Counted from the stretch's first letter, positions 9,549 through 51,699 are shown. The stretch is 64,000 nt of DNA from Candidatus Babeliales bacterium (GCA_050179755.1 JBFXEV010000001.1:1129994-1193993); one strand, 5' to 3'. Notes: a model not told the origin generated them from the sequence alone. Program-made: numbers and translations.

Positions 9549-10133
9549 CTATTTTTCGGTCTGGTTTGGGCTTTCAAGTGGTTCATCTAGCATTGTATCA
9601 GGGAGATTGCCTAGCCATATTTGTATTTTAGATGAATCCAAAACAGGCATTGTTTGCTCATTAGATGTCAGGGATTCCGAAGTTACTTCAGATAGAGAAT
9701 TATCAGTATGTTGATGCAGCGCTAACAGTGCCGCTATGTTTGTGCCTAGAGTTTCAAGTAGTTTTTGTTGAGTTTGCAATTGTGCTTGTTGTGCTTCATT
9801 TGCTTTTAGAACCCTTGCTAGGAGTTTTTGTGTTGCCATTTGCTCGTTAATGATCCGGGAATTTTGCCTTTCTACTTTAAGAACAATACTGATGAGTTTT
9901 CTAACTTCAGGAGTTTTTCCATCCAGTTTTGACAGAGCAGTAGTATCGTCATCGATAGCAGGTGTAGATTCATCATGCGCTGCAGCTACAACTGGTTTGG
10001 AAGATGGTTTACGAGGAGAGCGTTTACTTTTTGTTGTTTTCCATTTATTTGAATCAGATGCTTGATCCATGGCAAAAAGAGATGTTATTGGTAATAAAAG
10101 AGTTGTTGCTAAAAGTAATTTGCATAGTTTCAT
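9549..10133 (-). CDS. Hypothetical secreted protein with coiled-coil region
   Basis: AAGGA RBS, signal peptide ...SLFA/MDQ, Gln/Leu-rich heptads. Confidence 0.7.
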   Translation of the reverse strand: MKLCKLLLATTLLLPITSLFAMDQASDSNKWKTTKSKRSPRKPSSKPVVAAAHDESTPAIDDDTTALSKLDGKTPEVRKLISIVLKVERQNSRIINEQMATQKLLARVLKANEAQQAQLQTQQKLLETLGTNIAALLALHQHTDNSLSEVTSESLTSNEQTMPVLDSSKIQIWLGNLPDTMLDEPLESPNQTEK

Positions 10134-10271
10134 TGAAATTCCTTTTTAAGTAATTGTTAATGCTTCTTAAGTTAGTTTAGAGAAGTTTTTGAAAATGTGT
10201 AAAGGGGTTAAGTGAGTCGTAGAATAAATAAATTATGTAGGAGTTCCACTGATTATTTACAAGCATTATTA

Positions 10272-10425
10272 CTGGTGCCACTACGCGTGGCAGCGCATGC
10301 CTTTTTTTATGCAAAAAAAGGACGCAAAAAAGCACCAGCGTTCCGCTGGACCATTCCGCTTGATCGCTGAGCGCTATACCTCACGTCGTTTCACGACGAG
10401 GTATGCACACAGCGCGCATAGGAAC
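10272..10425. other. Multi-hairpin structured intergenic element (ncRNA or MITE/REP-like)
   Basis: Consecutive stems TGCCAC/GTGGCA, CCTTTTTTT/AAAAAAAGG, CCAGCG/CGCTGG, ATACCT..CGTCGT/ACGACG..AGGTAT. Confidence 0.55.
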
Positions 10426-11026
10426 TATTTTATTAAGTTTTGCCTGAGAAAAAATTTACTAGGTGGTACATCTGCATGGCTTTCGGTTAACAAATATGGG
10501 TAGTTGTAAAAAAAGAGTGCTAGGATATCCCGGCTGGGGAAAAATCTATGAATATGATATGCAGCTTGATTCTAAGTTTATATATTGTTTTTAATCGAAA
10601 TTGTAAGGAGGGTAGTTTATAAGCCGGCCCAGCCGGCCGTGGAGGCGGAGAAATTAGTGTAAAAAAGTCCATTAAAAATCCTAATGTAAAAGTACTTTAG
10701 GTAGCCTATTTTACTCGTTACAGGGTGCTTGCAGGCTGTATACGTGAAAAGTTAGGCGTTACCGGCTGGTCAAGCTTTAGCTTGGCTCTTTTTAGTTGAG
10801 ATCTTTTGGAGAAGCAAAAGGCCTCATGCCCGCCGCATAGGCGTTAGTGGGAATATAGGTAAATAAAAAATCAAACTTCTACACTAATATTGCCACAGAT
10901 CTTTGCAGAAAAGCAATTTTATGCTATCATTAAATGAATTAATTAAGTTATACAACATCATACATATTTTCTATTAGAAATCTTCAAGATAGTACAGAAG
11001 CTTAGTAAACTCAGGGGGTCTTTTTT

Positions 11027-13594: not shown

Positions 13595-13690
13595 GAATAA
13601 AATGCTCGTTTGCTCGTCAAAATAGTCAAATTGCAGTAAGCTGAAAACTATATTCAATTGAAGATATTAAATTCTATTAAGAGGTTTTTC

Positions 13691-14728: not shown

Positions 14729-14734
14729 ACTAAC

Positions 14735-16411
14735 TTACCCTTTCTTTTTTTGTACAACCTCATTGAGCACGTCCTTTATGAGCGTTGTATGTTGTTTTAC
14801 GGTAAATTCAGCAAGGCCAGAAAGTTCTTTAAATTGTTCTTGTGAATAATTAAAGTTCATGGTGTTGCAATATGAATGCTGTGTGCAATAATCAGGATCA
14901 AACTGCGAATATGCCGGATTTGTAATACGTGGAAAGTAAATGACTACGGGTACTTTTGGATCTTTATCTTTAAACACGCTTACAATGTTTTTATCTGCAA
15001 GTGCATAATCAATTCTAGGAAATTTTAAGCCTTTGCGTTTTGCATAGAGCTCAGCGTTCTTAAGCTCAGTTGAGCCTTGTATGGTGCCAGATGCGTCGTA
15101 TACGATAATAACATCTACTTTGCGTTCTGCACGTAATAACGGGGGGAATGGTATATTAAAATCGATTCCTGCATCAACTAAACAAATGTTTTTATCATTA
15201 CACAGCGGGCTCCACTGCACATTATGCGTAAAATTTCGTAACATAGAGGGGAATAAACGCAGATTGTTAAGTGGTGAAGCTCCAATAAAGTTAATCATTT
15301 TATGAGCAGGTTCTTGTAATAAGGGGGGTAGCTTGAGCTTAAGCCCTTGTAATTTATCGCCTGCATGCACTAAAATGTCTTGAAAGCACACATTAAAAGC
15401 AGACCCAAATATCCCCAAAAAATAACCTAAGCTTTGTTCGGGCGCGCTATCAAGTGACGCGCCATGTTGAAACTTTCTTCCGTATGCCCACGTGGGAATA
15501 TAGGAAAGCAAATGGTCGCTGCCAATTTCAAAAGGCGTGCATTCCATCCATTCATAGGGCGTTTTGTTTGTTTGGATTGAGGTATAAATTGGCATAGGTA
15601 AAAAACCCATGAGTACGTCTTGATGTGATTCTGAGATGGTCAAGTTCATGCGGCCATCACCAAAATCAGAAAGTAATGTATTTGCTAGTACAGCTCCATA
15701 GAGATCAATGCTTGAAAGTGGCTGCTTATGGAGTGTTTTAACAAGTAATTTTTGCATTAAAAGTTCTATTTCTTGTGGACTATTAAGATGATTTAATCCC
15801 TGTTCAATTTTTTTTGAAAGTTCATTCATATACACATCAAGCGGTTCGTTAGTTGCAATCCAGGGAGCAATAGCCCATGTGGATCCAGACAGTCCACACA
15901 TATACATTGAACTTTCAAAAAGGCCAGTGTCATGCGCTCCTTTTAGAAAACCAAGTGTTAAGTTCATTGCTCTAAAGCCACCACCACTAAAACACAGAGC
16001 AATGCGTGGCATGGAGTTCTCATCTAGCTTTGTTTCTAAGAATTTTTCTAGCGCTTCACGTGCATGAGGCAATCGATTATTAATGAAAGCACGTTCTGCT
16101 GCGCATAATTCGTTGTTCGGTGCGTAACGTACAAAAGCAGGTTTATTATTGAAAATATGATCCGGGAGTAAGTAATCTGCAAAAAGATCAGCCACATTCC
16201 ATAACCCTTCATGGATATCACGAAATCCTTCTTTAGTTACTTCATAGAGATAATTTATTACAGAGGGATAACGCGTACTTACGCCTGCACGCATAAGTTC
16301 TTGGTAATATTCTATTTCTTGTTCAGTCAGGTGTTGAGCAATGCGGTGATCTTGTATGGTGGCAGAAATAAGTTGAGTAGTAAAAAATAAGAGCACTAAT
16401 AGTTTTTTCAT
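14735..16411 (-). CDS. cPLA2/lysophospholipase catalytic-domain protein with signal peptide
   Basis: IALCFSGGGFRAM, CGLSGSTW, PMPIYT, ECTPFEIG, LVDAGIDFNIP; GGAG RBS before MKKLLVLL. Confidence 0.88.
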   Translation of the reverse strand: MKKLLVLLFFTTQLISATIQDHRIAQHLTEQEIEYYQELMRAGVSTRYPSVINYLYEVTKEGFRDIHEGLWNVADLFADYLLPDHIFNNKPAFVRYAPNNELCAAERAFINNRLPHAREALEKFLETKLDENSMPRIALCFSGGGFRAMNLTLGFLKGAHDTGLFESSMYMCGLSGSTWAIAPWIATNEPLDVYMNELSKKIEQGLNHLNSPQEIELLMQKLLVKTLHKQPLSSIDLYGAVLANTLLSDFGDGRMNLTISESHQDVLMGFLPMPIYTSIQTNKTPYEWMECTPFEIGSDHLLSYIPTWAYGRKFQHGASLDSAPEQSLGYFLGIFGSAFNVCFQDILVHAGDKLQGLKLKLPPLLQEPAHKMINFIGASPLNNLRLFPSMLRNFTHNVQWSPLCNDKNICLVDAGIDFNIPFPPLLRAERKVDVIIVYDASGTIQGSTELKNAELYAKRKGLKFPRIDYALADKNIVSVFKDKDPKVPVVIYFPRITNPAYSQFDPDYCTQHSYCNTMNFNYSQEQFKELSGLAEFTVKQHTTLIKDVLNEVVQKKKG

Positions 16412-16547
16412 GTATACTCCAGTTTCTAAGATTATAACTGATGCAAGTGTAAAATGTACACACGTTAATATGCAAGAGTTAATTGTGCAAACTGCGGATT
16501 CTTGGTACATTATAAGCGTTTTAAATAGATAATTAATAAGGGTGTTT

Positions 16548-17357
16548 ATGTGTAGAAAGCATTATTTTTTTTGGGTTCAACTTTTTATTGCGTTATTATG
16601 TGCCTATCAATCATTTGGTATGGACGCTTCTTTAAGACAGCAATTAATCACTGCGATTGAAAAGGATGCTGTTCAAGAAATTGCCAGCCTAGTAGATGAA
16701 AAAAAGGTAGATGTAAATGCTATAATTGACGATGATTTTGGAGTAACCTTGTTATTGCATGCTGCAAGCCTTGGCGCTGTGAAAGTTGGTGAATTACTTT
16801 TGGAACGTGGAGCTTCTAAAGATACAATGACCAAATGTAAACAATCGTGCATGAGTATCGCCTGTCAAGGTAATAAATTAGATTTTATTAAGATGCTGAG
16901 AGCGCGCGGGGTTAGTTTAGATGCAACGGAAAAGGACAAAAGAAGTCCCTTGGAATTTGCGATTGTTGCTGATGCTGTTGAAACAGTTGATTTTTTATTA
17001 GAGCATAATGTTTCTAGAGCTCCTCTTGAGATTGTTGTACCTCGCCAAGGTGACGTAAGAATGCCATCGGGCCGTGTTGAGCTATTAATTGAAGAATACA
17101 AGCCACGATTTTCCTTATTGCATTTTGCGGTGTTTGTTAATGCATTGCGAGTGTGTAACTTATTATGTACTAAATATAGGTTTGATCCTAATGAAAAAAT
17201 ACCTTTTAGAAAACTTACTAACGAGGTTGTGCAATTAACCCCTAATGATATTGCAGTGATGAGTTCAAATTGGCCTATAGCGCAGATTTTAAAAGATAAT
17301 GGTGCCAACGCAAAAAGCCACCATGCTTTGATGTTGTTATATTTTTCAAAAGAGTAA
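16548..17357 (+). CDS. Ankyrin repeat protein with signal peptide
   Basis: GVTLLLHAASLG, SPLEFAI, SLLHFAV, ILKDNGAN. Confidence 0.82.
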   Translation: MCRKHYFFWVQLFIALLCAYQSFGMDASLRQQLITAIEKDAVQEIASLVDEKKVDVNAIIDDDFGVTLLLHAASLGAVKVGELLLERGASKDTMTKCKQSCMSIACQGNKLDFIKMLRARGVSLDATEKDKRSPLEFAIVADAVETVDFLLEHNVSRAPLEIVVPRQGDVRMPSGRVELLIEEYKPRFSLLHFAVFVNALRVCNLLCTKYRFDPNEKIPFRKLTNEVVQLTPNDIAVMSSNWPIAQILKDNGANAKSHHALMLLYFSKE

Positions 17358-17361
17358 ACCT

Positions 17362-19980: not shown

Positions 19981-19989
19981 CAAATTTGT

Positions 19990-21435
19990 TTAAATTGCCA
20001 GTGGACTTAAGAAAGCATATTGGCGATACATTTGATCGATAACTCTTAGCTTTTGTGCAACGCTATATGTTGGGTTGCTAAGTTCTTCAATGTCGGCAGT
20101 AAAGGCTTTTTGCTTTGTGCTTGGTATGCGGCCTATATAGTGCTGAAGTGCAGAAAGATGATAACGTAAGAATCCTGTTCCTGTGATATCAAGCTGTAAA
20201 TCACCGCTATTAAATTTGTTGAGTAATTTATCAATTTGTATCAGGCGATGCTGCAATGGTTCGCTTAAAATTTTGCGATGGAATATTGCATCATATCCTT
20301 TTTTGATACTATAAAGACCGAGTGCTATGGGGAAAATTGCAATAAGTGCTGCATTTAATTGCTGTGCTTCCCAAAATTCTTTAAAAGCAAGTGCAAATTC
20401 ACTAAATTGCCAATCTTTCAATTGTATTAAACTAGCATTAGTTTCCAGAAAATGAAGGTTGCCATTATAGAAATTGGTAGTTGCATTCCAGATAAGATGT
20501 TTTGCTTGATCATCCCAGAATTCGACTATTAAGCTTGAATCTTTGGTTGCAAGAATATAAGAACGCAGCGTTGCAAGTTCTTCTTCTGTTGCTTTTGGTT
20601 TTATTATTGGTAATAATTTATCAAGATTTGTGGTAAATGTTCTTTTGGAGCCTGCAACGGCTTCGGGAGTAATTACGGGAAGATGTTTTTGCCCAAACAA
20701 GACTTTTTTAGTGTTTTGCAATGGATTTTTAATGTGGTCTTGCCAAAATTTTAAAATTATTGCTTTTCCGTTATTTTTCCAGATTTGCAAATTATCTTGA
20801 TTCTTATAGGCATAAACACCTGCCGCAAGAGCACATCCAGCAGCCAGAACATATTTGGTCCAATTACGGACAAAATGATTTGGCTTTAGATGATCGCTTA
20901 CGCGTGCTAAGTATTGTTCTTGAAAGGTCGACAATTGTTCAATCGCCTGTGTTGCATAGGCGCTAATAATAACATCATCAAAGCTCTCGGGGCGCGTATA
21001 GTGGTTGCCAAGGAGCGATTCTGAAAGATCAAAGTTGTTACAAGATGTTGCAATGTCGCCCTGCTCAGTTTGTGGAGCTTGCAGGTAAGACGTGCTGAGT
21101 GCACCTAGTGCTGTTGCTACTTGTTCTTGTTTTTCTGCTAATACTTTAATATGGTTCTGGATGTCTTCTAGAGCTGAGTTCGAGCTAAGCCAGCCTTTGG
21201 GCCCGCGAATAATGGCATGAGAGAGAGGATTATCTTCCACTGTGTGCCAGTATTCAAGGGAGGCTTCAAGCTCGTGCATAACGCTTAAAAGACCGCTTTC
21301 AAGTGCTTGATTATAAGCAATACAAAGAGCTTTGCTGTTTGGAGATATTGGTTCCCCTAAAGAAAGCGCTGGGCTAATAAGCAGGGATAGTGTTGCTACA
21401 TAGAGCGTAGATTTCTTAAAAAATGAGCGTATCAT
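19990..21435 (-). CDS. NCA2/DGS1-like membrane protein
   Basis: GGAGG RBS before MIRSFF. KPNHFVRNW-TM-...FWQDHIKNPL and LNAALIAIFP resemble the NCA2 family as recalled; not verified by search. Confidence 0.55.
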   Translation of the reverse strand: MIRSFFKKSTLYVATLSLLISPALSLGEPISPNSKALCIAYNQALESGLLSVMHELEASLEYWHTVEDNPLSHAIIRGPKGWLSSNSALEDIQNHIKVLAEKQEQVATALGALSTSYLQAPQTEQGDIATSCNNFDLSESLLGNHYTRPESFDDVIISAYATQAIEQLSTFQEQYLARVSDHLKPNHFVRNWTKYVLAAGCALAAGVYAYKNQDNLQIWKNNGKAIILKFWQDHIKNPLQNTKKVLFGQKHLPVITPEAVAGSKRTFTTNLDKLLPIIKPKATEEELATLRSYILATKDSSLIVEFWDDQAKHLIWNATTNFYNGNLHFLETNASLIQLKDWQFSEFALAFKEFWEAQQLNAALIAIFPIALGLYSIKKGYDAIFHRKILSEPLQHRLIQIDKLLNKFNSGDLQLDITGTGFLRYHLSALQHYIGRIPSTKQKAFTADIEELSNPTYSVAQKLRVIDQMYRQYAFLSPLAI

Positions 21436-28103: not shown

Positions 28104-28159
28104 ATAGTCTATAGGGTTTAATTAGAATATATTTATGATTCATAGTGGGAGTTTGTCCA

Positions 28160-29614
28160 ATGAACGCATTTAAACAAATTTTACTTATTTTATCTGTCTT
28201 TTGCCCTGCATTACCTATTAATTCCATGACAGTCATATCACTTCAATCAAAATGTATTAATACAATAGTGAGAAATTTTGATACATATACTCCGGAAGAG
28301 ATTGCCCAGCTTCCTGAAGATTCACGTAAAGTTCTTATACTTAAAAAATTGATTGAAACTTTCGGTGCTGTAAGTTGTAAGCGCCATAGTCACTTTGGAA
28401 TAAGGAGACAAGCGCAAACCCAACGACAAGGAACTGGTCCGGTATACGCAGCGGCAGCAACATTGGATAACAAGATAATAGCTGGAACTTATGATCACGT
28501 ATATGTATGGGGTATGGATGGCGAGAAAATTGCTACATGTAAAGGGCATTCAAGCGCTATTACTTCAGTTGCTGTTTCTAAAGATAATAAAATAATTTCA
28601 GGATCTTATGATAAGACTATTAGAGTCTGGGATATGGATGGACACCAGATAAAGCTTATTGAAGGACATTCTGATGCTGTTACTGCCGTTGCTATTTCAC
28701 TTGATAATAAGATAATTTCAGGATCACGCGACAATACAATCCGGATTTGGGATAGAGATGGTATTCAACGTGCTTCGTGTGTTGGCCATACTGGTCCTAT
28801 TGTTGCCTTGGCGATATCACATGATAATAAGATAATTTCTTCATCTGGCGATAAAACCATCCGTGTATGGGATATGGATGGGAATCAAAGAGCCTTATTT
28901 GATGGGCATTATTCTCCCCTTATTGCTGTAACGTCTGATAATAAGATAATTGTAGGAGCTTGCGGTAGAAGTTCTATGTCAGTATGGGACATTGAAGGTA
29001 ATTTTCTTGGGGAGTTATTTTGTGAACTTCCCTCAGGGGTTTCTTGCTTGGCTATAACATATGATAATAAAATAGTATGTGCATGTACGGATGGCAATGC
29101 CTACATTTTTGATATGGATTGTAATCAACTTGCAATATGTCGCGGTATGCCTGGTGAGGAGACAAACATTCTTTCTCTTGCAGTAAGTAAAGATAACAAA
29201 ATAATATTGGGATGTATGGATCATTCTGGGCGTGTATTTGATATGAATTTTTTGAATTGTGTTGAAAAGATAAATGAACAACAAGCATTGCGCATATTAA
29301 GGGTTTTGCGCAATTCTTCCAGAGAATTTTCTAATGGGAGAACTTGGGAAATGATAAAAAAAATAATAAATGAACCTGAAACTAACGCTAAAGCATCAAT
29401 GAGCGATGAAGTGCAAGAGGCTATATCTGTACCAGCATTAATAGCATCAGCACAAACACCTCCACCAGCACGTAAAAATGAATTTCAGCGTAAGGTAAAA
29501 ACTCAATCTTTAAATTCAGATCAAAAATTCGCATTAGGTTGGGTAATTGTGTTGGCTGGGTATGTTGCGTATAAACTGTTTGTAAGTAGTTCAGATAATT
29601 CAACAAATCACTAA
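28160..29614 (+). CDS. WD40 repeat protein with signal peptide, BC-box-like N-terminus and C-terminal TM helix
   Basis: Repeated GH..(V/I).....D.KIISGS.D.TIR.WD units at 40-aa period. Confidence 0.9.
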   Translation: MNAFKQILLILSVFCPALPINSMTVISLQSKCINTIVRNFDTYTPEEIAQLPEDSRKVLILKKLIETFGAVSCKRHSHFGIRRQAQTQRQGTGPVYAAAATLDNKIIAGTYDHVYVWGMDGEKIATCKGHSSAITSVAVSKDNKIISGSYDKTIRVWDMDGHQIKLIEGHSDAVTAVAISLDNKIISGSRDNTIRIWDRDGIQRASCVGHTGPIVALAISHDNKIISSSGDKTIRVWDMDGNQRALFDGHYSPLIAVTSDNKIIVGACGRSSMSVWDIEGNFLGELFCELPSGVSCLAITYDNKIVCACTDGNAYIFDMDCNQLAICRGMPGEETNILSLAVSKDNKIILGCMDHSGRVFDMNFLNCVEKINEQQALRILRVLRNSSREFSNGRTWEMIKKIINEPETNAKASMSDEVQEAISVPALIASAQTPPPARKNEFQRKVKTQSLNSDQKFALGWVIVLAGYVAYKLFVSSSDNSTNH

Positions 29615-29647: not shown

Positions 29648-30740
29648 TTACAAATTTTTGTTTGCTTCCAGCAAGAGAACGTAAGCTCCTTGATATTCCA
29701 TATCTTTTGCAAACATAAGTGCAGTTTTGCCGGCTGAATTTTTTAGTGTTATATCAGCGTCTGCTTTAAGCAAAGCTTTAACCATTTCTCCCACTACTCT
29801 GGATTTGCCATCGGTGCTATAGGCATGTGTATATTCTTTTTTTCCATCAACTATATGCGTAGTTAGAAGTTGTTCCTTTTTTGTGGCTACTTTTGCATAC
29901 AACGCTGCTTTCATGTGAGCGGTAATGCCGCCATTTGTTGGAGTATTGAAATCAGCACGTGCATCAATAGTAGTCTGACTACTTCTAGATTTTCAGCACT
30001 TGCTGCTATCAATAATGCAGTTCCCGATTCGTCTTCAATACTTGCATCATTGCATAAGTTTTATCAGCTCCTGCTGCAATCAATGCCATTGCAAAGTGGG
30101 GGTTTATTGTTCTGGGCAGCCATCATTAATGCAGTCAATCCAATTGCATTTCTAATATCAGCTTGTGCTTATGTTCTTAGCAGGACTTGTACAACATCAT
30201 GCCGGTCAAAATGGCCTGCATGCATGAGCGGCGTCATGCCGAGTAGTTCTGTTTGGGCGATGTTTGCACCGCCAGTAATGAAAGCTTGTGCTATCTTGCC
30301 ATTAATGCAGTCATGTAGTGCTGTTTGGTTACCGCGTTGACTGTTAGGGTAGTTTACATCAGCACCATGCTCGAGCAACAATTGAACTGCTTCAACGAAG
30401 CCAGATTTCATTCATTCGCTTTTGGCAGCGCATCCAAGCACGGTAAAGCCAAAATAATCAGTAGAGTCTATAGGATAGCAAAGTTTAATAAATTGATATA
30501 AATTGTCTACGCGGTTATGTAATGCTGCATGGAAGAATAAATTTTTTTTAAATTCATATTCGGTTCCCTTGAGGTGGGTTACTGTGGATCCGTTAGGAAA
30601 TCTTAACGTAATATCATGGGGCACTGTTAGTACTTCATATTCATTTTCTTGCATAGCAATTACCTGGAGGCTCATAAATAAAGGATGGCGCCAGCCTTGT
30701 TGCCGTAGGTTAACATATGCTGTAAAGAGAAGATCATGAA
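29648..30740 (-). pseudogene. Fragmented ankyrin repeat gene
   Basis: Three ORF pieces (30412-30675, 30169-30411, 29648-29914) with ankyrin motifs (GFTVLGCAAK, LLLEHGADVN, GMTPLMHA, AGKTALMFA) separated by stops and frameshifts. Confidence 0.8.
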
Positions 30741-30921: not shown

Positions 30922-31455
30922 TTACTGCTTCGTAAATGCTGGCATGGGTAATCCCTGAGCACTTTTCTTGAGAATTTTTAGTGTTCTTGCTAAATCGAAG
31001 CATTCTTTATCAATATGGTTGTTCGTAAGCAAGTCATGTATTTTAGTTTCAAGAGCAGAATAGCGTTCTCGCTGCTCCTTTCTTGTTGTTGCTTTACCAG
31101 CTTCAGATAACAGTATAGCTTTCAAGAGTTTGCCAAAAAATTCATCATGCTCTTTGCACGAGGGGCTAGTACATTTTTGCTCATACCAATACGTATCAAA
31201 AATGGTGCCTTTAGAATGACTTCGGTTACAAAGTGGAGCTCCGTTGGCGATTAGCTGAGTAATGATCGCCAGATGCTTTTCCGGGTTAAAAAGTCCTGGC
31301 ATTCTAATACCTGTTAGGGCGTGATAATGGCCAAAAGACATTTCTCTTATGATGGCGTGCAGTAAGCTATCGCCATTGGTGGGTTTTGCAGATTGTTCCA
31401 TGGCTCCAACATATGTATTGAGAGTGAGGGCTATTATAATAAGTAGTTTTTGCAT
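30922..31455 (-). CDS. Hypothetical secreted protein, degenerate ankyrin-like
   Basis: Signal peptide ...VGA/MEQ; NGDSLLHAII, LIANGA. Confidence 0.65.
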   Translation of the reverse strand: MQKLLIIIALTLNTYVGAMEQSAKPTNGDSLLHAIIREMSFGHYHALTGIRMPGLFNPEKHLAIITQLIANGAPLCNRSHSKGTIFDTYWYEQKCTSPSCKEHDEFFGKLLKAILLSEAGKATTRKEQRERYSALETKIHDLLTNNHIDKECFDLARTLKILKKSAQGLPMPAFTKQ

Positions 31456-32691: not shown

Positions 32692-34050
32692 TTATTGCAT
32701 GTCAATTAATGAAAACCATTTTTCAATTAAGAATGTAACCGTCTCAACGCGGCCATAATGCCAGGCTTCCATCAAAGGGGTTGCATTGCTATGGTTTTTA
32801 GCTCCAATATCTGCGCCATGTAGCAGGAGTAGTTTAACTTTTGTGGTGTATCCATTTTTTGCAGCATTATGTAGCGGTGTATCATTAAGGGCATTTCTGG
32901 TGGCACAATTAGCTCCACATTCTAAAAGTAATTGTAATGTTTCAATTTTTCCTCGTACAGATGCTGCACACTGCAATGGAGTTTCACCTTCTTTGTTTAT
33001 AGCTTCAATATCAGCCCCGTTTGCTAAAAGTAGTTTTATTGCTTCATTACGATGCATTATTGCTGCCCAATGCAACGGTGTATATTCGTCGTTATCTTTT
33101 GCTTCAATGTCAGCTTTGTGTGCTACGAGCAAGGCTGATATTTTAGGGTTTTTTATCTTTGAAGCCTCGTGCAGAGGGGTTAGTCCACAGCAATTTTTGG
33201 CTTCAATGTTAGCTCCTCTCCTGAGAAGTAATTGAGCAATTACTATCGCAGAAAGTTCAATTCCTTTATTGGCAAATAAGTGAGCAACTGATAGATCGAT
33301 AATAACTGCATGCAAAGGAGTTCGGCCATACTTATCTTGAGCTTCAATGTCAGCGTTATGTTCAAGAAGAAGGGCTGTCGTTTTAGAATTTGGTCCTGTT
33401 ACAGCCATATGGAGTGGCCTTTCGCCATCCTTATCTTGAGCTTCAATGTTAGCTTTATGTTCAAGAAGAAGGGCTGTCGTTCTAGGATTTGGTAATTTTG
33501 CAGCTTCATGGAGCGGGGTTCTTCCCTTGTTATCTCGAGCTTCAATGTCAGCTTTATATTCAAGTAGAAGGGCAGCCGTTCTAGGATTTGGTAACCTTAC
33601 AGCTTGGTGGAGTGGGGTTCTCTCATGCAAATCTTTAGATCCAATTTCAGCGCCACTTTGTAAAAGCCGCTGAACCACTTCTACTTTGCCGCAGGCGGCA
33701 GCTTTATGTAATGGTGTACTGCCGATATTATTTTTAGCTTCAATACATGCTCCATTTTCTATCAGAAGTCCAACAATCACTGCTGAGCTTTTAGGGGGAA
33801 TCAGAAATGCCAGATGTAAGGGTGTTGCGCCCAAACTATTTTGTGCATTAACATTAACACCTTCTTGTACAAGTTGTTGTACAGTCCTAACTTGTCCTGT
33901 GAGCACAGCAGCATGCAATTGCGTTGATGTTTCATCACGCCAATGGAGTGCTCTTTGTTGTTGTTCATAATAACTTATTTCCATACCGCTTGCTGTTAAC
34001 GCAATACAAAATATAGTGAGGGTGAGGATTTTATGATTAGTTAAGTTCAT
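32692..34050 (-). CDS. Ankyrin repeat protein (about 12 repeats) with signal peptide
   Basis: Repeated G.TPLH.A....LL..GA.IEA.D units. Confidence 0.93.
   Translation of the reverse strand: MNLTNHKILTLTIFCIALTASGMEISYYEQQQRALHWRDETSTQLHAAVLTGQVRTVQQLVQEGVNVNAQNSLGATPLHLAFLIPPKSSAVIVGLLIENGACIEAKNNIGSTPLHKAAACGKVEVVQRLLQSGAEIGSKDLHERTPLHQAVRLPNPRTAALLLEYKADIEARDNKGRTPLHEAAKLPNPRTTALLLEHKANIEAQDKDGERPLHMAVTGPNSKTTALLLEHNADIEAQDKYGRTPLHAVIIDLSVAHLFANKGIELSAIVIAQLLLRRGANIEAKNCCGLTPLHEASKIKNPKISALLVAHKADIEAKDNDEYTPLHWAAIMHRNEAIKLLLANGADIEAINKEGETPLQCAASVRGKIETLQLLLECGANCATRNALNDTPLHNAAKNGYTTKVKLLLLHGADIGAKNHSNATPLMEAWHYGRVETVTFLIEKWFSLIDMQ
33330..33625. repeat. Near-identical 99-bp tandem repeats within the ankyrin gene
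   Basis: GCTTCAATGTYAGC..TATRTTCAAG.AGAAGGGC..CGTT.TAG.ATTTGGT at 33341, 33440 and 33539. Confidence 0.85.
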
Positions 34051-34350: not shown

Positions 34351-34409
34351 CTTATTCCGCTCTACTGCCAACACGTAATGAATACAGATGTGTGACCTCG
34401 AGGGACTTT

Positions 34410-34962
34410 ATGCAAGAGATGCCCAACAAAGTATTATTTTTGGTACTAGCTTTAATAACCAATGCAAACATGTATTGCATGTACACATGGCATGCACCAG
34501 AGTTTGGTGGGTTCAAAATTGCGTCCTGTGCAAGACCAGGTTGTACCAGTGCAGCTTTTAAGTTCTTTGTCCCTTGATGATGAGCTGGTAAAGCCTTATG
34601 ATGCCATAATCAACTTAGCAGAACCTGAACCAAGAAATGTTGGTATTATAGATGTATATCAAATGAATCGAGTCATGCTTGCAAAACATGGTATCTTGAG
34701 AGAGGGCGTAGAACAGCAACTCTATGAAGACGGGGTAAGTTTGTTTTGTCACCGAAGTATTAATAATATTGATTCTGCTGCTGCCGCGTATCCGGGAAAT
34801 CGGCATTTTATGGGTAGGCGCATGATTGTATTAGCGCTGGCTTTAGGAGCACAACCTGATCAGGCTCTTAAAGATTCCATGTTAGCGTTAAGTTTTGCTT
34901 GGGCTTTTAAGGATAGAGCGTTGGTTCGATTTTTGCTTGATAAAGATATACCAATACCCTAA
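34410..34962 (+). pseudogene. Frameshifted paralog of the downstream hypothetical gene
   Basis: N-part (LFLVLAL..NMYCM...KFFVP*) and C-part (EQQLYEDG..MGRRMIVLALALGAQP..DIPIP) lie in different frames; frameshift near 34572. Confidence 0.7.
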
Positions 34963-35047
34963 ATTTTATGGTGAGGTTTGATAAGATTAATGTGCTTTAT
35001 GGTAAGTGGATAAGGGTTGTTTTAACAACGTGACACGAGGACATTAT

Positions 35048-35638
35048 ATGATGAAAAATAGATCACTGTTTTTAGCCATAGCTCTTTTGATAAGCACGAA
35101 CGTATATTGTATGCAGCCAGCGTATGGAGTTGATTTTTGCACATGGTATAGGCCTGAGGTTTCTGATGCTAGATTACATTTTTATATTCCTGAAAACCCT
35201 GGATTAGTATGGACTGGTCAAGAGAAGAAATCGATCGATGTTCATGATGTCACTTTTTACCCAAAAGATAGCGGAAACTTAGTGGGGTTTAACGTTGATG
35301 GAACTGATCCTGATAAGATTGCCAAGCGCTATCCCATGCCACATGAGCTTGCAGAACAATTATTACGAGATGGTATGGGCATATACTGTAATGGGTATAG
35401 GCTTTTTGCACATGCTGCTTTTGGTCCGGGCGAAATTAAAATGACTGATGCTGCATATGTTTATATGGGACACAGAATGATTGCTCTAGCTTTGGCTTGG
35501 GGAGCAGATCCGCTTCATAATGTAGAAGCTGCAAAGAGTGCAATGAGCACTGCGTGGATAACTAGAAATGCACCATTAGTTCAGCTTTTGCTCAGTAAAA
35601 AGATACCAATACCTATTTGGGTAAGGAATAAAAGTTGA
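35048..35638 (+). CDS. Hypothetical secreted protein (tandem paralog)
   Basis: GAGG RBS, signal peptide ...VYC/MQP; EQLLRDG..MGHRMIALALAWGADP..KIPIP. Confidence 0.75.
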   Translation: MMKNRSLFLAIALLISTNVYCMQPAYGVDFCTWYRPEVSDARLHFYIPENPGLVWTGQEKKSIDVHDVTFYPKDSGNLVGFNVDGTDPDKIAKRYPMPHELAEQLLRDGMGIYCNGYRLFAHAAFGPGEIKMTDAAYVYMGHRMIALALAWGADPLHNVEAAKSAMSTAWITRNAPLVQLLLSKKIPIPIWVRNKS

Positions 35639-38460: not shown

Positions 38461-39141
38461 ATGGAAATAAAGAGAATGGTGGTAATGTTGGGTTTAATGC
38501 TCAACATAATAGGTCTTTTGGCACAGCCAACATATTATGAAATTTTAGGCGTGTCTAAAACTGCTTCTGAAAGTGATTTGAAAAAAGGGTATCGCAAAAA
38601 AGCTTTAGTGTTGCATCCTGATAAAATACAAGAGCGAACAGGAATGCCTGCTACATCTGAACAAACCAAGAAATTTCAGGAGTTAGTGGAAGCATATGAT
38701 GTACTTAAGGATCCTCTAAAGAAAAGAGAGTATGATATAAAGTTAGCCCAAGCAGCAAAGGCTTCATCAACACCAAAACCGCAATCAGCGCAACAGCAAT
38801 ATAAGCCTGCATCAAAACCGCAGCAGGCAACTGGGCCCAAGCCAGCACAATCACAGTATAAACCAACGCCAAAACCGCAAACAACTCAGCCTCAATATAA
38901 GCCTGCGCCAAAGCCACAGCCCACTCAACAACAATTTAAACCGATTCCAACGCAAGCACAAAAACCTCAAGTGCCTGCTGCAAAGCCAGCACCAGCAGCT
39001 GCAAAGTCGGCATTTAAACCAGCAGCCGCAAAAAAAGAGTATGATTTTTCGTGGTTAGAATCTGAAGATGAATCAGATGATTCTTTGAGCGCAGGCAATT
39101 CATCTGACGAATCAGATTATTCAGATGATGAAGATTACTAG
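38461..39141 (+). CDS. J-domain protein with signal peptide, Pro/Gln/Lys repeats and acidic tail
   Basis: YYEILGV, LHPDK, AYDVLKDP..REYD; QYKP repeats; Asp/Glu/Ser C-terminus. Confidence 0.85.
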   Translation: MEIKRMVVMLGLMLNIIGLLAQPTYYEILGVSKTASESDLKKGYRKKALVLHPDKIQERTGMPATSEQTKKFQELVEAYDVLKDPLKKREYDIKLAQAAKASSTPKPQSAQQQYKPASKPQQATGPKPAQSQYKPTPKPQTTQPQYKPAPKPQPTQQQFKPIPTQAQKPQVPAAKPAPAAAKSAFKPAAAKKEYDFSWLESEDESDDSLSAGNSSDESDYSDDEDY

Positions 39142-42523: not shown

Positions 42524-42533
42524 CGTGAATAGA

Positions 42534-43197: not shown

Positions 43198-44019
43198 ATG
43201 AATAGATCATTATTTGGGCAAATTGCCATAATCTTAAGTCTTTTGATAGTCTTTATTCCTGTTTCAGTTAAAAGCATGGATCAGCAAGGCGACTTGCAGG
43301 CCAGCTCTTCGTTAGTAAGTAAGCTTGCCGTGGTAACGCTTGTTCCTACAGCAGGATTTATGTATGTGATGCGTAGGCACTATAATGAATTACACGTACT
43401 TGAACGAAGTCTTGATCTTTCAACTATTGCAGCAAATGCCCGTGAAGGTAATTTCCGCTTTGCAACATGGCGGTCAACGCAAGATAATTGTATCGATGGA
43501 AAATGCTGGGCAACAGCGAGTGATGTTTGGCAAGACGGTAGAAATATAGCAGCTGTGCTTATGCGTGATGTAAAATATTTTGCTGATCGAGTATTTGTAT
43601 ATGACGCATTGAATTTGCGCCTTGATAATGCCAAAATTGAAAAACACGATTTACAAGCGGCAATAGCTCGAGAAAAGCAGTTGTTTGAAACTCAATTGAA
43701 CTTGGTCAGTCACTATACGAATGCTCCTTATCGTATTGTTGCTGCGCTTGCTCCAAATGATACACGATGTCTTACTCCTTCTGAACTTGCAATTAATTGC
43801 GCGTTAAAGTTAAAAGAAAGTGACGATGTTATCAATCAAGTTGAAAATGACTTAAAGCAGGAAGCAAGCTTTGTAAAAGAACTTATATATTTTGGCGGTT
43901 GGTTGCCAACTTCTTGGTCCATTGCGCCTTGTTCTCAAAAGGCATCGCGTTTATACATAAAATTATTTAGAGCGTACGCTCGTCTATGCGCACTCGAAGC
44001 AGCATTAAATCAAGAATAA
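43198..44019 (+). CDS. Hypothetical secreted/membrane protein
   Basis: GGAGG RBS, signal peptide ...VKS/MDQ, TM segment. Confidence 0.7.
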   Translation: MNRSLFGQIAIILSLLIVFIPVSVKSMDQQGDLQASSSLVSKLAVVTLVPTAGFMYVMRRHYNELHVLERSLDLSTIAANAREGNFRFATWRSTQDNCIDGKCWATASDVWQDGRNIAAVLMRDVKYFADRVFVYDALNLRLDNAKIEKHDLQAAIAREKQLFETQLNLVSHYTNAPYRIVAALAPNDTRCLTPSELAINCALKLKESDDVINQVENDLKQEASFVKELIYFGGWLPTSWSIAPCSQKASRLYIKLFRAYARLCALEAALNQE

Positions 44020-44040
44020 TATTGCATTATTAAAACTGTT

Positions 44041-44078
44041 AAAAATACCGCAACCTAACCAGTTGCGGTATTTTTTTT
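44041..44078. terminator. Bidirectional intrinsic terminator
   Basis: AAAAATACCGCAAC-ctaacca-GTTGCGGTATTTTT between convergent genes. Confidence 0.8.
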
Positions 44079-44080
44079 GT

Positions 44081-45322: not shown

Positions 45323-45497
45323 GTTCCTCTCCTTGTTACGTATTTAAACTTCATGTTATTCTTCAACTTTAGCATGCCATAACTTTAACACAAATAGCAA
45401 TAAACCACCTCGCAGTGGTGCGTGAGCTAGTTGTTTTTGGAGAACGGTTGAGATAAAATTGATTTTTGCGGTATGCTAAGAGAAGGAAGGAAAGAGT

Positions 45498-46514: not shown

Positions 46515-46678
46515 ATTAGCTCCTTATTAATTCCTATCTCAATTAATAAACGTACTGGCCTTCACTTTAGATAGACTGCTTAAATAAATATTGACTATTT
46601 GAAAATGATTATTGTAATCTGTTAGTAACGAAGAAGAGAGAAGCAGCACGTCACGGACATACTAATGGGGGAGGTATC

Positions 46679-47830
46679 ATGTCTCAAGCTACAATCAAAT
46701 TCATAGTAGGGTTAGTACCATTTTTGATGGTAGCTTCAAGTATCACGGCAGCTTCAACTACGGCACGTAACGCTATGACTAAATGTTTTCACCATCGCGG
46801 CACGTTAAGTGATAAAGTGGTTTGTTATTTTAATGAAGATCCAATTTGTACAGCGCATCCGCGTTTAAACGATAAAAATCAAGCCCAAGAAAAATTAGTT
46901 CGTTTTTTTATACCACTTACCGATTTTGCAACTACTGAGGTTAAAGATCATGCAAGTCATGTAGCAGAACGCAACGACAAAGGGTATCAGATGCGATTTG
47001 AGCAAGTTGATAAGCCCATGCGCGGGATTCAGTTAGAAATTGCTTATGATCCAAGTAAAATTGAATTTTGTTACGCGCGTAGTGATGCTATTCATACACA
47101 TAAAGCATTAGTCTTTACGTTTCATAATAAATCAATGGTGCATGAAATTCAGCGTAAAAGTGAGGGCATTTCAAAGCTTGCTATGCATAAAGTAAAACAG
47201 CCAACCGTGGTCATTGATTGTGGCCATGGAGGGTCTGATGTTGGCAAAGTGGGTTTATATAATACCTGTGAAAAAGATATTAACTTGAGCGTAGGCTTTC
47301 AAGTTGCAGATGGTTTAAAAAAAAAAGGGTATCGAGTTCTGTGTACACGCACTGCTGATACGTTTGTAGCGCTTGATGAACGAACAACCTATGCAAATGC
47401 AGAACAAGCTGATTTATTTGTATCAATTCATTCAAATGGTTCATCTAATCGATCTGTAGAAGGGATTGAAACATATTGGTCGCCTTATTCTCTTTTAAAG
47501 CAAGAACCGAAAGGTAGTGACATTCTAGATCCACGGTTTAAAGAGCTTGCGCTTCAAAAAGATGCGGTGAGCAAAATACTTGCTCAGGAATTACATCGTC
47601 AAGTGCTTGAAGTTGCACAAAAAAAATACAAAGTTAAAGACCGTACTGTCAAAGAAGCGGTATCTCAGGTGCTTATTGGCACTGATATGCCAGCGGCTTT
47701 GATTGAATTGGGTTTTTTATCCAATGACACTGAGGCCAAGCAACTTGCAAATAAACAGTATCATAAGCAAATAGCTCAAGGAATTTGCACGGGAATTGAG
47801 CATTGTCTCAATCATCTGCAGGGTGCCTAA
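46679..47830 (+). CDS. N-acetylmuramoyl-L-alanine amidase (Amidase_3)
   Basis: VVIDCGHGG, EKDINL, FVSIHSN, PAALIELGFLSN. Confidence 0.9.
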   Translation: MSQATIKFIVGLVPFLMVASSITAASTTARNAMTKCFHHRGTLSDKVVCYFNEDPICTAHPRLNDKNQAQEKLVRFFIPLTDFATTEVKDHASHVAERNDKGYQMRFEQVDKPMRGIQLEIAYDPSKIEFCYARSDAIHTHKALVFTFHNKSMVHEIQRKSEGISKLAMHKVKQPTVVIDCGHGGSDVGKVGLYNTCEKDINLSVGFQVADGLKKKGYRVLCTRTADTFVALDERTTYANAEQADLFVSIHSNGSSNRSVEGIETYWSPYSLLKQEPKGSDILDPRFKELALQKDAVSKILAQELHRQVLEVAQKKYKVKDRTVKEAVSQVLIGTDMPAALIELGFLSNDTEAKQLANKQYHKQIAQGICTGIEHCLNHLQGA

Positions 47831-47933
47831 ATATATTTACATAAAACTCTTTTGAAAACTGTTCTGTTCTGTTACAGTAATAATGCATATGTAATTATTT
47901 TATCTTACAAATTGTTATAGGTTTTAATTAATC

Positions 47934-49325: not shown

Positions 49326-49339
49326 CAAAAGGAGAAGCT

Positions 49340-49885
49340 ATGAAACGGATTATGGTGTGTTGGATGTTGTTTGCGGGTACATTGTGCGCTCAAGAAATGC
49401 AATCAATAAAAAAAGTACTTGATGCCACTGAGGATATTGAGTTTAGCACATTTTGTGAATTTATTGGTGTGCCTGTTGAGCAAAGAGCTGAATTTGCAGC
49501 ACATTATGAAACGCAATCAAAAAAAATTAAACGCGTGCGCTCAAGTGCAACCCGCCAAGCGCGCACGCAAGAATTACGTGATAAAGGGCGCAGTGCGTTA
49601 CAAGTGGAAGAGCCGCAATTATATGCAGAATTTAAAGCATGTGAAGAGGGCGTTTCAATATGTATGAGTCCACGTGCCTGCGTTGCGCAAAATGCCCGTT
49701 TATTTTTAACACGCTATGGGGCTTGGCATGAATTTAAAAAGATGCATGCGCAATCACAAATAAGTATGTGGGCAAAGGTTAAAGATTTTGCAAGAAACGG
49801 CAAACAGCGTATAGCTCATTTGTTTGGAGCTCAAGAAGAAGTAAAAGTTGCTCTCAATGAAAGCGCTGAGGGGAAAAAGTCTTAA
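49340..49885 (+). CDS. Hypothetical secreted protein
   Basis: AAGGAG RBS, short signal peptide. Confidence 0.7.
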   Translation: MKRIMVCWMLFAGTLCAQEMQSIKKVLDATEDIEFSTFCEFIGVPVEQRAEFAAHYETQSKKIKRVRSSATRQARTQELRDKGRSALQVEEPQLYAEFKACEEGVSICMSPRACVAQNARLFLTRYGAWHEFKKMHAQSQISMWAKVKDFARNGKQRIAHLFGAQEEVKVALNESAEGKKS

Positions 49886-49905
49886 GCACATAAGGGAGAA
49901 AAAGT

Positions 49906-51699
49906 ATGTATAAGCAAAGAATTAAATTAGGGTTATTGCTAAGTGCTTTATTCTTAGGATCTCTCTATGGCATGCAGCCAGCGTTAGAGAACTTGAAGGA
50001 TAGCTTAGATGATTTACGCAGAGAGTTAGGTGGAATACAACAGCCACATATTCAATTGCCCCCTCCAGTACTTCAAGGTGGACCAATAACACCAATTATT
50101 ACTGGTCCATTGCCGCCACCGCCTGTTGTGCAAGCTGGTGCTATTTCAACTCCATCAACTAAGACAGGTGCACCAGTATCTAAGTCTGGTCGTAAACCCG
50201 GATTAGGTGATGTAACTAATATTGGGTTTACGCCAATAGCAGGGTCAGATAAGCCGAAACAACCCGTTGCTTCGGGCATCGGTTTGAGCGCTGAACAACT
50301 TGAACAGCAACGTAAAGAACGGGAAGCGCGTTTGGCTGTAGCAAAGCAAAAGAAAGCTGCAGCGGGCGATATTACAAAAGGTTTTATAACAGCAGCATTT
50401 GCAACATATCCAGTATCAGCGACGGTTCCTGCACCAATTGCTACAAAAGATTTTGGGGTTGAGCGTGAAGCGGTAAATGCAATAAATATTAAATCAGATA
50501 CCATTCTAAATCAACTTAAAAGCAATTTGTTTACGCAAGATGATAAAAGGGAACGGCAACCACTAGCTAAAAAGTTATTGAATGGCTTATTATTCTTTAC
50601 AAGAAATAATGTAGTACAGCCTGATCAAATTAAGCAAATTGCCGATCTAGTGGTACTCATCTTAAATATTGATCCATTATTGATTACTACAGCGGATGCA
50701 GTGTTGCGGCAACTTGGTTTTGATGACGTGGCAATACACCGGCTAATGACGCTGTTTTTTGAAGAACGTATTAGATTTATACAAGAGACATTAGAAGAGC
50801 TAAAAAAACAAGCAACAGAAGGTGCAATTCAAGATATTGATCAAGCATTTGCTTACTCAATTGCGTTATCAAGTGAGTTAATACGCCAAGAAAGTATAGT
50901 GCTTGATGAGCATACTACTGCAGCACAAAAGCAAGAAGCACAATGGTTTATTGATAAAGTGCGAGAATTGCGCAAAAGGTTGTGTGAGATTATCACTGCG
51001 CCTGATAACATTGTACTTTTTAATACAAAGCCGGCGCTCAAAGAGCTCTATCTTACGATATGTGGTGCACAGCAGAAGGCAAAATTACGTGTATATTGTG
51101 TTACTGCCGCATACACATATGGAAAGACGCTTGAAGGTAAGCGAAAAGGTAGAGATTATACCTATTGTGGTTTTGATCAAGAAATACAAAAGATCATGGA
51201 TGAAATTAAGAAATTCAATGCATTAGAAGAAAGTGAAATGTCAGTAAGTCAGCGTGTATACACCGTGCAAACAATTATTAGTTCACTTGCTGACATTAAT
51301 ACGTTCTTTACCAATCCTGATGTTTGTCCAAACTGCTTGAGAGAGGCAATTCGTTTTGGGCATCCAAAAGTATTAACTGTTAGTCAAGTGGAAGAACCAT
51401 TTAAAATGCAACTTGCCCAAATTGCAGATTTTTTATTGGCTATGAACAAGCGTGATAATAGTTTTTATTTAGAAAACTTTGTAAGAACTGGTATTCCTAA
51501 TATAAAAACGACTCTTGATCGCGTGAGAAAGTTGAGTGATAAAGAATCAGCAATGATTTACGGCTTGATTGGCATAAATCGTGTGGCAAAAGAAAAGAAT
51601 CTAGGGCCATACAATCTTGATGATTTTCTTCATGGCCGTATTCCACAGTGGTTAATACAAGAGAAAGAAAGAAGAAGAATGCAAGCATTATCTGTATAG
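49906..51699 (+). CDS. Hypothetical secreted protein with Pro-rich N-terminal region
   Basis: GGGAG RBS, signal ...LYG/MQP, LPPP and LPPPP tracts, helical C-terminal part. Confidence 0.75.
   Translation: MYKQRIKLGLLLSALFLGSLYGMQPALENLKDSLDDLRRELGGIQQPHIQLPPPVLQGGPITPIITGPLPPPPVVQAGAISTPSTKTGAPVSKSGRKPGLGDVTNIGFTPIAGSDKPKQPVASGIGLSAEQLEQQRKEREARLAVAKQKKAAAGDITKGFITAAFATYPVSATVPAPIATKDFGVEREAVNAINIKSDTILNQLKSNLFTQDDKRERQPLAKKLLNGLLFFTRNNVVQPDQIKQIADLVVLILNIDPLLITTADAVLRQLGFDDVAIHRLMTLFFEERIRFIQETLEELKKQATEGAIQDIDQAFAYSIALSSELIRQESIVLDEHTTAAQKQEAQWFIDKVRELRKRLCEIITAPDNIVLFNTKPALKELYLTICGAQQKAKLRVYCVTAAYTYGKTLEGKRKGRDYTYCGFDQEIQKIMDEIKKFNALEESEMSVSQRVYTVQTIISSLADINTFFTNPDVCPNCLREAIRFGHPKVLTVSQVEEPFKMQLAQIADFLLAMNKRDNSFYLENFVRTGIPNIKTTLDRVRKLSDKESAMIYGLIGINRVAKEKNLGPYNLDDFLHGRIPQWLIQEKERRRMQALSV

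Follow-up and report, generated by a model that had tools for sequence, protein, structure and literature searches.

A methionine-first rule at predicted signal peptidase I junctions in the secretome of Dependentiae

Introduction

In Bacteroidetes, most substrates of signal peptidase I carry Gln at the first mature position (+1), where it is cyclised to pyroglutamate, a regularity known as the Q-rule (available sections of PMC5837995 and PMC10653852). Within the phylum Dependentiae, 44% of the coding sequences of Chromulinavorax destructans, including those of 78% of its ankyrin proteins, have signal peptides, and orphan proteins are enriched among them (available sections of PMC6561590). Here, we describe a rule for the +1 residue in the Candidatus Babeliales genome G000 (Dependentiae/TM6; a single contig of 1,525,295 bp), exemplified by one 64,000-nucleotide stretch of it (positions 1,129,994-1,193,993, G+C 37-40%; hereafter the window), in which the predicted Sec signal peptides of ten reading frames end directly before a Met that is mostly followed by Asp, Glu or Gln.

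Dependentiae are a widespread phylum of protist parasites in which signal-peptide proteins take up a large share of the genes. To our knowledge, they have no recognised effector secretion system. A cleavage-site residue rule under selection, for which we argue below, divides this secretome in two on sequence information only and offers a concrete hypothesis for testing in cultured Dependentiae. No published description of a Met-first rule was found in the limited literature searched.

Results

The genome-wide scan used 1441 non-overlapping open reading frames (ORFs) of at least 70 amino acids, 726 of which pass a loose home-made signal-peptide filter. The filter asks for a basic n-region and for nine consecutive uncharged residues whose mean hydropathy is at least 2.0; it admits some membrane proteins and cannot separate a cleaved leader from a membrane anchor. 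Met is the residue directly before the first charge after the hydrophobic core in 148 of the 726, and each of the neighbouring positions holds 11-37 Mets. Counted from the hydrophobic window, the frequency of Met is 9.2% at six to seven residues past it and 1.1-2.5% further downstream, and the same position profile has no peak for Trp, Cys or His. The residues that precede these Mets, on which no condition was placed, are Ala (76), Gly (20), Cys (17), Ser (14) or Thr (5) at position −1 in 132 of 148 cases, and Leu (36), Ala (30), Val (18), Thr (16), Ile (14) or Ser (9) at position −3 in 123 of 148; the Met itself lies at residue 16-35, most often at residue 23. When the −3/−1 rule alone picks the site, Met is the commonest +1 residue, at 124 of 591 sites (21%) versus 2.0% in the proteome (binomial probability ∼5e-85), and Gln occupies +1 in 36 of the 591. 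As judged from these patterns, the signal peptidase I motif sits exactly before the junction Met. The original prediction had asked whether predicted cleavage sites fall before the Met and whether +1 Met is enriched over background: they do, and the enrichment is about ten-fold. A cut before Met that yields Met-Asp/Glu/Gln, as had been proposed, fits every sequence statistic computed here; the acetylation, degron and sorting functions attached to it belong to interpretation and are weighed in the Discussion.

A direct definition of the junction, which requires a Met preceded by a small residue at −1 and an allowed one at −3, with no charged residue between it and the hydrophobic core, retrieves 221 ORFs. 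This list holds false members, namely membrane proteins, lipoproteins and proteins with the Met inside the leader, the lipoprotein type being represented by ...LVTAC|M in a GH3 protein and by ...LVSC|M at window position 40038; it also misses real members with a charge near the junction, such as the gene at 43198. The junctions are distinct from a lipoprotein signal, in which a lipobox is followed by Cys at +1, in that +1 is Met. Type IV prepilin leaders are short and charged, with Gly at −1, Phe or Met at +1 and a hydrophobic stretch after the cut; here, the hydrophobic stretch precedes the Met, and the residues after it are polar and rich in Pro, Ser and Gln. Genome-wide, Pro (four-fold at +3), Ser and Gln are enriched at +3 to +8 after Met-Asp/Glu/Gln/Asn, a composition that suggests a flexible N-terminal linker. 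G000 encodes two signal peptidase I (Peptidase_S26) proteins, at 1044143-1045009 (+) and 1506717-1507577 (−), both with the Ser-Met-Glu catalytic stretch, and each of 31 relatives has one to four matches, some of which are fragments of one gene and some of which are tandem copies. A second signal peptidase dedicated to the Met junction was considered and rejected, as the relative G011, with one detected copy, still shows the motif.

Relatives were retrieved through their signal peptidase genes under the names Candidatus Babeliales, Candidatus Dependentiae and candidate division TM6, and the scan covered the first 400 kb each of G001 (a same-genus relative), G016 and G019, and 100 kb of G011. 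In G001 (39/166), G016 (37/215) and G019 (28/178), no residue is commoner than Met directly before the first charge; Met likewise leads in G011 (7/43), where about five more junctions were recognised by eye. A scan of 67 loci of other Dependentiae, each spanning at most 21 kb around the signal peptidase gene, shows the core motif at 30 loci and in 54 of 553 signal-peptide-like ORFs; the most divergent bin of these loci has it in 13 of 85 ORFs, and one further locus holds no signal-peptide-like ORF. The outgroup control, run with the same code on 100 kb of Escherichia coli K-12 only, recovered DegP, Skp and Ivy with known-looking sites, and Met preceded the first charge in none of its 30 signal-peptide-like ORFs, these three included, which makes for a small control. 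The pattern noted at first in the window is therefore no window-level curiosity; it holds there and, as read from the genomes sampled, is a genome-wide and lineage-wide Dependentiae rule that is seen again in four relatives and at 30 of the 67 other loci.

Selection on the junction Met was assessed with reciprocal best hits (n = 297) between G000 and 600 kb of the 1.87-Mb genome of G001. At core junctions (small residue, Met, Asp or Glu), the +1 Met is retained by 18 of 21 orthologues with G001 as the reference and by 14 of 17 with G000 as the reference, whereas 33% of the other Mets in the mature parts of the same pairs are retained (Fisher 5e-6). Identity in these pairs is 47-48% over the mature part and, with G001 as the reference, 24-62% at flanking positions. 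Of six apparent losses, three for each reference, four look to be alignment shifts in which the partner has its own small-residue-plus-Met junction nearby. Under the looser definition that gave the 221 ORFs, Met is kept in 23 of 34 and 22 of 32, and most of the losses arise where the rule settled on a Met within the leader. Homology clustering sorts the 167 core proteins of G000 into 100 groups, of which 86 are singletons and the largest has 41 members, and leader DNA is similar in eight pairs, all eight with homologous mature parts, that is, paralogues. A shared leader cassette or a shared C-terminal domain was rejected on these grounds, and many unrelated families therefore keep the junction independently of one another. 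We are highly confident that the Met-first rule exists and is under selection. One set of paralogues forms a tandem array at G000 403832-412712 (L082:274-9154), where five WD40 proteins have near-identical signal peptides ending in AFG, followed by Met-Asp or Met-Glu.

The junction Met, as far as its sequence context tells, is not a translation start. Shine-Dalgarno 4-mers lie 4-20 bases upstream of 51% of the 171 upstream starts of Met-junction genes and of 49% of those of other signal-peptide genes, versus 5% of the +1 ATGs (1% for 5-mers) and 9% of internal-Met controls in non-exported proteins. Third-codon (synonymous) positions around the ATG hold no nucleotide motif, and a Kozak-like GCN ATG GAN signal was discarded, the synonymous positions having no bias beyond what the amino acids require. 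Residue 2 also sets the junctions apart, with Asp or Glu in 101 of 221 Met junctions versus 9 of 202 native starts of non-exported proteins (ATG plus Shine-Dalgarno; Fisher 1e-24). Orthologues keep the n-h-c architecture of the leader, and public gene calls for five window genes place the start upstream in four and at the Met in none. Internal ribosome-binding sites before these ATGs, and an untranslated upstream segment, had both been raised as ways in which the cleavage reading could fail; the Met ATGs lack the ribosome-binding signal, and the upstream segment is translated.

We next consider which proteins carry the Met. Pfam families were assigned with an E cut-off of 1e-8, starting from the first 120 of the 221 Met-junction ORFs in genome order, which were then split by the +2 residue. 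Among 78 scanned members of the core Met class, 50 have no family, 12 are WD40, eight ankyrin and two TPR proteins, two are false members, and Macro, GT47, GT2 and M15 peptidase are represented once each, the M15 peptidase being the sole classical envelope protein. The remaining Met set (101 scanned) has 25 Ank_2 matches and one WD40 match among the best 25 of 60 families. The comparison class, designated clean non-Met, consists of 150 proteins taken from 160 that pass extra filters among 307 non-Met ORFs, with proteins above 900 amino acids and the overflow beyond 150 left out. It has no WD40 protein and 10 ankyrin proteins (one of which is really a junction with Pro at −1), along with many enzymes, about 70 proteins of no family, and an envelope set made up of BamA, a secretin, a Legionella-type outer membrane protein, three solute-binding proteins, thioredoxin, M23, M48, SpoIID and AmiA. 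WD40 and TPR proteins together thus account for 14 of 78 in the Met class versus 0 of 150 in the non-Met class (Fisher 1e-7), and ankyrin proteins for 38 of 221 versus 10 of 150 (Fisher 0.003). Met-class genes are lineage-specific: a reciprocal best hit in G000 was found for 2 of 54 from G016 and 5 of 40 from G019, versus 217 of 370 non-exported ORFs. On sequence grounds, Met marks the fast-evolving part of the secretome, made up of eukaryote-like (WD40, ankyrin, TPR) or orphan proteins, rather than classical envelope proteins.

Cysteine parity differs between the two classes as well. Even and odd cysteine counts are found in 45 and 72 proteins of the Met class, 68 and 54 of the non-Met class, and 282 and 339 of the non-exported proteins; the Met and non-Met classes differ (Fisher 0.009), the Met class being cytoplasm-like or lower.

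Several proteins that are normally cytosolic also have signal peptides in this genome: GAPDH, a deoxynucleoside kinase, ferritin and an Fe/Mn superoxide dismutase, at loci outside the window (L112:15787-16899, L071:4816-6021, L104:12180-12743 and L119:5549-6304). In the exported GAPDH, the native Met survives about ten residues past the point of the predicted cut; in G001, the leader is conserved. A further signal-peptide protein (L091:3730-4698) is a glycosyltransferase with a DXD sugar-binding region and a weak match (E 8e-9, over the first 40 profile positions) to the TcdA/TcdB catalytic family.

The residue that follows the Met is strongly biased. In the 221 ORFs of G000, +2 is Asp in 57, Glu in 44, Gln in 25, Lys in 14, Asn in 13 and Leu in 11, with fewer of the others, and a Met-Asp/Glu/Asn/Gln terminus, the substrate type of the eukaryotic N-terminal acetyltransferase NatB, is predicted for 139 of 221 in G000, 52 of 77 in G001, 36 of 54 in G016 and 22 of 40 in G019. 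Across these four genomes, Asp/Glu/Asn/Gln make up 55-68% of +2 residues versus a background of 21-22%, Gly/Ala/Ser/Thr/Cys 2-12% versus 26-28%, and Leu/Ile/Phe/Tyr/Trp 6-13% versus 26-29%, with basic residues at about background. The 150 clean non-Met proteins have a different mature end, the predicted +1 residue being a type 1/2 Arg/N-degron in 64, convertible into one in 37, Gly/Ala/Ser/Thr in 34 and Val/Pro/Met in 15.

Enzymes that might act on such an N-terminus were also sought. Three GNAT acetyltransferases have signal peptides (L083:2-694, L091:16462-17808 and L117:1160-1771). A role for them as secreted N-terminal acetyltransferases was rejected: their best matches are generic structures (a hypothetical protein, spermidine acetyltransferases and AAC(6')), and against solved N-terminal acetyltransferases they reach E values of only about 0.003-0.005. 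A periplasmic methionine aminopeptidase was likewise set aside, both M24 genes being without a signal peptide.

Within the window, all ten N-termini listed in the original prediction translate with the junctions described there, and eight of the ten have Asp, Glu or Gln at +2; two of the ten secreted-type ORFs (30412-30675 and 34392-34962) proved not to be intact. The loose detector finds 23 signal-peptide-like ORFs between 9549 and 51699, and the junction is present in eight intact ones; at a Met frequency of 2% per site, the chance of 8 in 20 is estimated at ∼3e-9. Five of the intact genes (9549, 30922, 35048, 43198 and 49906) have no Pfam family. The orphan secreted protein at 9549..10133 (−) has a 21-residue signal peptide ending in SLFA, followed by Met-Asp-Gln (Met codon 10068-10070), and an AAGGAA-like Shine-Dalgarno sequence precedes its upstream ATG; that at 30922..31455 (−) has an 18-residue signal peptide ending in VGA, followed by Met-Glu-Gln. 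On the other strand, the orphan secreted protein at 35048..35638 (+; ORF 35006-35638) reads VYC, then Met-Gln-Pro, the orphan at 43198..44019 (+) has the leader end VKS, then Met-Asp-Gln, with a GGAGG Shine-Dalgarno sequence before the upstream ATG, and a Pro-rich orphan secreted protein of 597 amino acids at 49906..51699 (+) reads LYG, then Met-Gln-Pro.

Three intact genes belong to repeat families. An ankyrin-repeat protein at 16548..17357 (+; ORF 16542-17357; Ank_2 4.4e-16) has SFG followed by Met-Asp-Ala (Met codon 16620-16622); a second, of 452 amino acids, at 32692..34050 (−; Ank 1.8e-70) has a 22-residue signal peptide ending in ASG, then Met-Glu-Ile, with an AGGAA motif before its upstream ATG (start 34050). 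The WD40 beta-propeller protein at 28160..29614 (+; ORF 28145-29614; WD40 7e-40) has INS followed by Met-Thr-Val, a non-core junction with Thr at +2. A public protein collection holds the full-length forms of the proteins at 9549..10133 and 16548..17357, and Met-start forms of these two were not found in it. The two broken genes retain the junction. The fragment at 30412..30675 (−), in which the leader end VIA is followed by Met-Gln-Glu, is probably the remnant of an ankyrin-type gene and keeps only a leader stump, an in-frame search upstream of it having returned no open hydrophobic leader. The locus at 34392..34962 (+) is a frameshifted, broken paralogue of 35006-35638 whose N-terminal piece has the leader end MYC, then Met-Tyr-Thr; its pieces 34392-34577 and 34462-34962 each align locally to 35006-35638, with scores of 81 and 136.

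Two window genes provide a contrast. The cell-wall amidase AmiA at 46679..47830 (+; Amidase_3 5.9e-50) has a signal peptide and a junction without Met, and the cPLA2-like lipase at 14735..16411 (−; PLA2_B 1.4e-29) has a signal peptide ending in ISA with Thr at +1; not every likely host-directed protein therefore has the Met. A second cPLA2-like (PLA2_B) lipase, fused to ankyrin repeats, occupies window positions 1-1916 (+), begins 925 bases before the window (G000 1129069) and has the junction SVS|MDK. Other genes of the window include a DnaJ-domain protein with a signal peptide (38461-39141, +) and a signal-peptide protein (19990-21435, −) that matches the NCA2 family (E 6e-13), a eukaryotic protein of mitochondrial ATP-synthase regulation. 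FtsH-like proteins with AAA and M41 domains are found in the window at 57740-60391 and, passing the loose signal-peptide filter, at L076:10888-12483.

Discussion

The +2 spectrum suggests a function for the junction in the host cell. [quoted passage not shown] Basic and bulky hydrophobic N-termini are Arg/N-degrons, Asp, Glu, Asn, Gln and Cys N-termini are converted into them, and some Met-hydrophobic N-termini are targeted as such; signal peptidases are among the proteases that create degrons, and no physical interaction of unacetylated NatB-type N-termini with ubiquitin ligases is known (same sections of PMC11735805). By the degron and methionine aminopeptidase rules, Met-Asp/Glu/Asn/Gln is therefore the safe choice for an N-terminus made after translation, and the predicted +2 spectrum matches this expectation well. 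Sec export followed by a signal peptidase cut would expose a mature Met-Asp/Glu/Asn/Gln; this N-terminus would not be open to co-translational acetylation, yet, with no known recognin and no trimming by methionine aminopeptidase, it would be stable in the host cytosol, and acetylation by host NatB may follow after arrival. We assign a probability of roughly 45% to the proposal that the purpose of the junction is a degradation-proof N-terminus for proteins that end in the host cytosol. The fuller statement, that Sec-exported effectors reach the host with Met-Asp/Glu/Asn/Gln, the sole unacetylated N-terminus unread by known N-degron receptors, and are perhaps NatB-acetylated there, so that the Met junction would mark host-cytosol effectors, is offered tentatively; cleavage at the Met bond, delivery to the host cytosol and the benefit in stability or acetylation are steps that we infer. 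Cysteine parity is a weaker, independent hint in the same direction.

A number of observations weigh against this proposal. Arrival in the host cytosol is itself part of the supposition, Sec being the sole export route identified here, and the cleavage position is one predicted by a home-made detector, whose Met list also includes AA permease, PBP1, TspO, ATP synthase c, YidC and DsbD. NatB usually acts on the initiator Met of a nascent eukaryotic chain at the ribosome, whereas the Met here is internal, 16-35 residues into a bacterial ORF. Among the Met junctions, 13% are basic and 10% hydrophobic at +2. Depletion of envelope proteins from the Met class is borderline (1 of 78 versus 11 of 150; Fisher 0.06), and the even-cysteine bias of the non-Met class alone is not significant (p 0.24). 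Likely host-directed proteins occur without the Met, namely the 10 ankyrin proteins among the 150 and cPLA2-like, PLD and C11 enzymes, and the tag is therefore not obligatory. The genomes compared are not independent, because all belong to one order. Finally, the Gly/Ala/Ser/Thr/Cys degron pathway has been described for animal cells (available sections of PMC11735805), and the hosts here are protists.

The main rival to a degradation-proof N-terminus is a sorting tag for a second step, in which Met-Asp/Glu would be read in the periplasm and would route the protein over the outer membrane, to vesicles or to the host, the other exported proteins staying in the envelope. It explains the class split equally well, with classical envelope residents lacking the Met and WD40, TPR and orphan proteins having it. 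The strict conservation of Met, rather than of just any hydrophobic residue, suggests a reader of the side chain or of the N-terminus; moreover, the signal peptides of the Met and non-Met classes are indistinguishable (median length 21 versus 22; best 9-residue hydropathy 2.77 versus 2.78; mean number of Lys/Arg in the first eight residues 1.63 versus 1.49, the last two features being partly imposed by the filter), so that what separates the classes is the mature end. Precedents for sorting by exposed residues are the PEXEL motif and the lipoprotein +2 rules, and the genome encodes a secretin. The ASAFAP motif is another precedent for sorting by the first residues after cleavage (available sections of PMC4329603). 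We nonetheless regard a sorting tag as unlikely: no candidate receptor was found, a tag does not itself predict a +2 spectrum in which amides are up and Ser/Thr/Ala/Gly and hydrophobics are down, many likely secreted enzymes and the 10 ankyrin proteins go without it, and the presence of the motif in G011 leaves no dedicated peptidase to mark such a pathway. Less probable still is a processing optimum, whereby Met at P1', together with an acid or amide at P2', would make export or cleavage of fast-evolving proteins efficient and unambiguous, with no later function. Acidic residues early in the mature part generally favour export, and a small +2 residue, which would create a second −3/−1 site (small-Met-small), is indeed depleted (15 of 221); but Thr and bulky hydrophobics, which create no cleavage site, are depleted at +2 as well, the same cell manages to process its conserved envelope proteins without a Met, E. 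coli signal peptides have no such need (0 of 30), and the choice of Met specifically is left unexplained.

Other explanations place the origin of the Met elsewhere than in the mature protein. The original prediction had offered, as a neutral alternative, that leaders were added before the original start codons of acquired genes; in these, or in newborn genes, the Met would then be a remnant start. The class is indeed made of lineage-specific genes, as their rarity among reciprocal best hits indicates, and the exported GAPDH is one real case in the genome. As the whole story, however, a relic finds no support and is very improbable: the Met is under purifying selection in orthologues, whereas other Mets of the same proteins are mostly lost, Asp/Glu stand at +2 in 46% of junctions versus 4.5% of native starts, leader DNA similarity is confined to paralogues with no shared cassette, and the junction coincides with a −3/−1 site, which is not required of a relic. 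Dual initiation, in which the internal ATG would give a leaderless cytoplasmic isoform beside the exported one or would be the sole true start, draws on the strict conservation of the ATG, which is start-codon behaviour, and on the fact that about half of the real starts have no recognisable Shine-Dalgarno sequence, so that its absence is not absolute proof. Against it stand the frequency of that sequence before the +1 ATGs, which is below even that of the internal-Met controls and far below that of upstream starts, the conserved n-h-c leaders, the lack of a nucleotide motif, a residue 2 unlike that of native starts and the public gene calls, and we give it scarcely any weight. At least one test goes against each of the processing-optimum, relic and dual-start readings. 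A detector loose enough to pass 726 of 1441 ORFs might raise the suspicion of chance, or of an artefact produced by AT-rich sequence and by the calling of ORFs and signal peptides; yet the enrichment is confined to one position, the −1/−3 pattern was not imposed in the count, and the result replicates in five genomes and 30 further loci and is absent with the same code in E. coli, so this explanation is practically negligible.

If a degradation-proof N-terminus is what the junction provides, bacterial signal-peptide design would be linked to eukaryotic protein-stability rules, a signal peptide with built-in N-end-rule proofing would be known from bacteria for the first time, and the Met junction would serve as a sequence-only marker that tells host-cytosol effectors from envelope proteins. 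Should the Met instead be a sorting tag, it would point to an unknown export step. In practice, the cleavage sites described here may be misplaced by predictors whose training rests on model bacteria.

Sec signal peptides that obey a lineage-specific rule for the mature end are of a kind already known from the Q-rule, and we regard the Met version as new. Like the Q-rule in the available descriptions, it is a lineage-wide preference for one +1 residue of ordinary Sec/signal peptidase I peptides and a property of the mature N-terminus; unlike the Q-rule, it involves Met with an acid or amide at +2 instead of Gln, no modifying enzyme is known here, and its reach is roughly a fifth to two fifths of signal peptides, with classical envelope proteins left out, as against most substrates for the Q-rule. 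The words methionine and Dependentiae are absent from the Q-rule paper PMC5837995, and in the Chromulinavorax destructans paper the word methionine is absent and the available signal-peptide passages give no cleavage-site residue rule (PMC6561590); to the Sec secretome described there, in the same phylum, the Met junction adds a subdivision. Two export signals of eukaryotes offer a second comparison, both based on the endoplasmic reticulum and specified by other residues (Phe; x-Glu/Gln/Asp), whereas a second translocation in Dependentiae is hypothetical. In Plasmodium, the PEXEL residues exposed after leader removal determine whether the protein is transported onward. In complex plastids, the ASAFAP motif acts likewise in the available account (PMC4329603) and is a model for the sorting alternative. 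The closest likeness in the mature ends themselves is to the eukaryotic NatB class, with which the junctions share the predicted Met-Asp/Glu/Asn/Gln and the depletion of Met-removal-permitting and hydrophobic +2 residues, as far as that class is set out in the available sections of PMC11735805; the difference is that here the Met is internal and would be exposed by a bacterial signal peptidase, not set by a eukaryotic ribosome.

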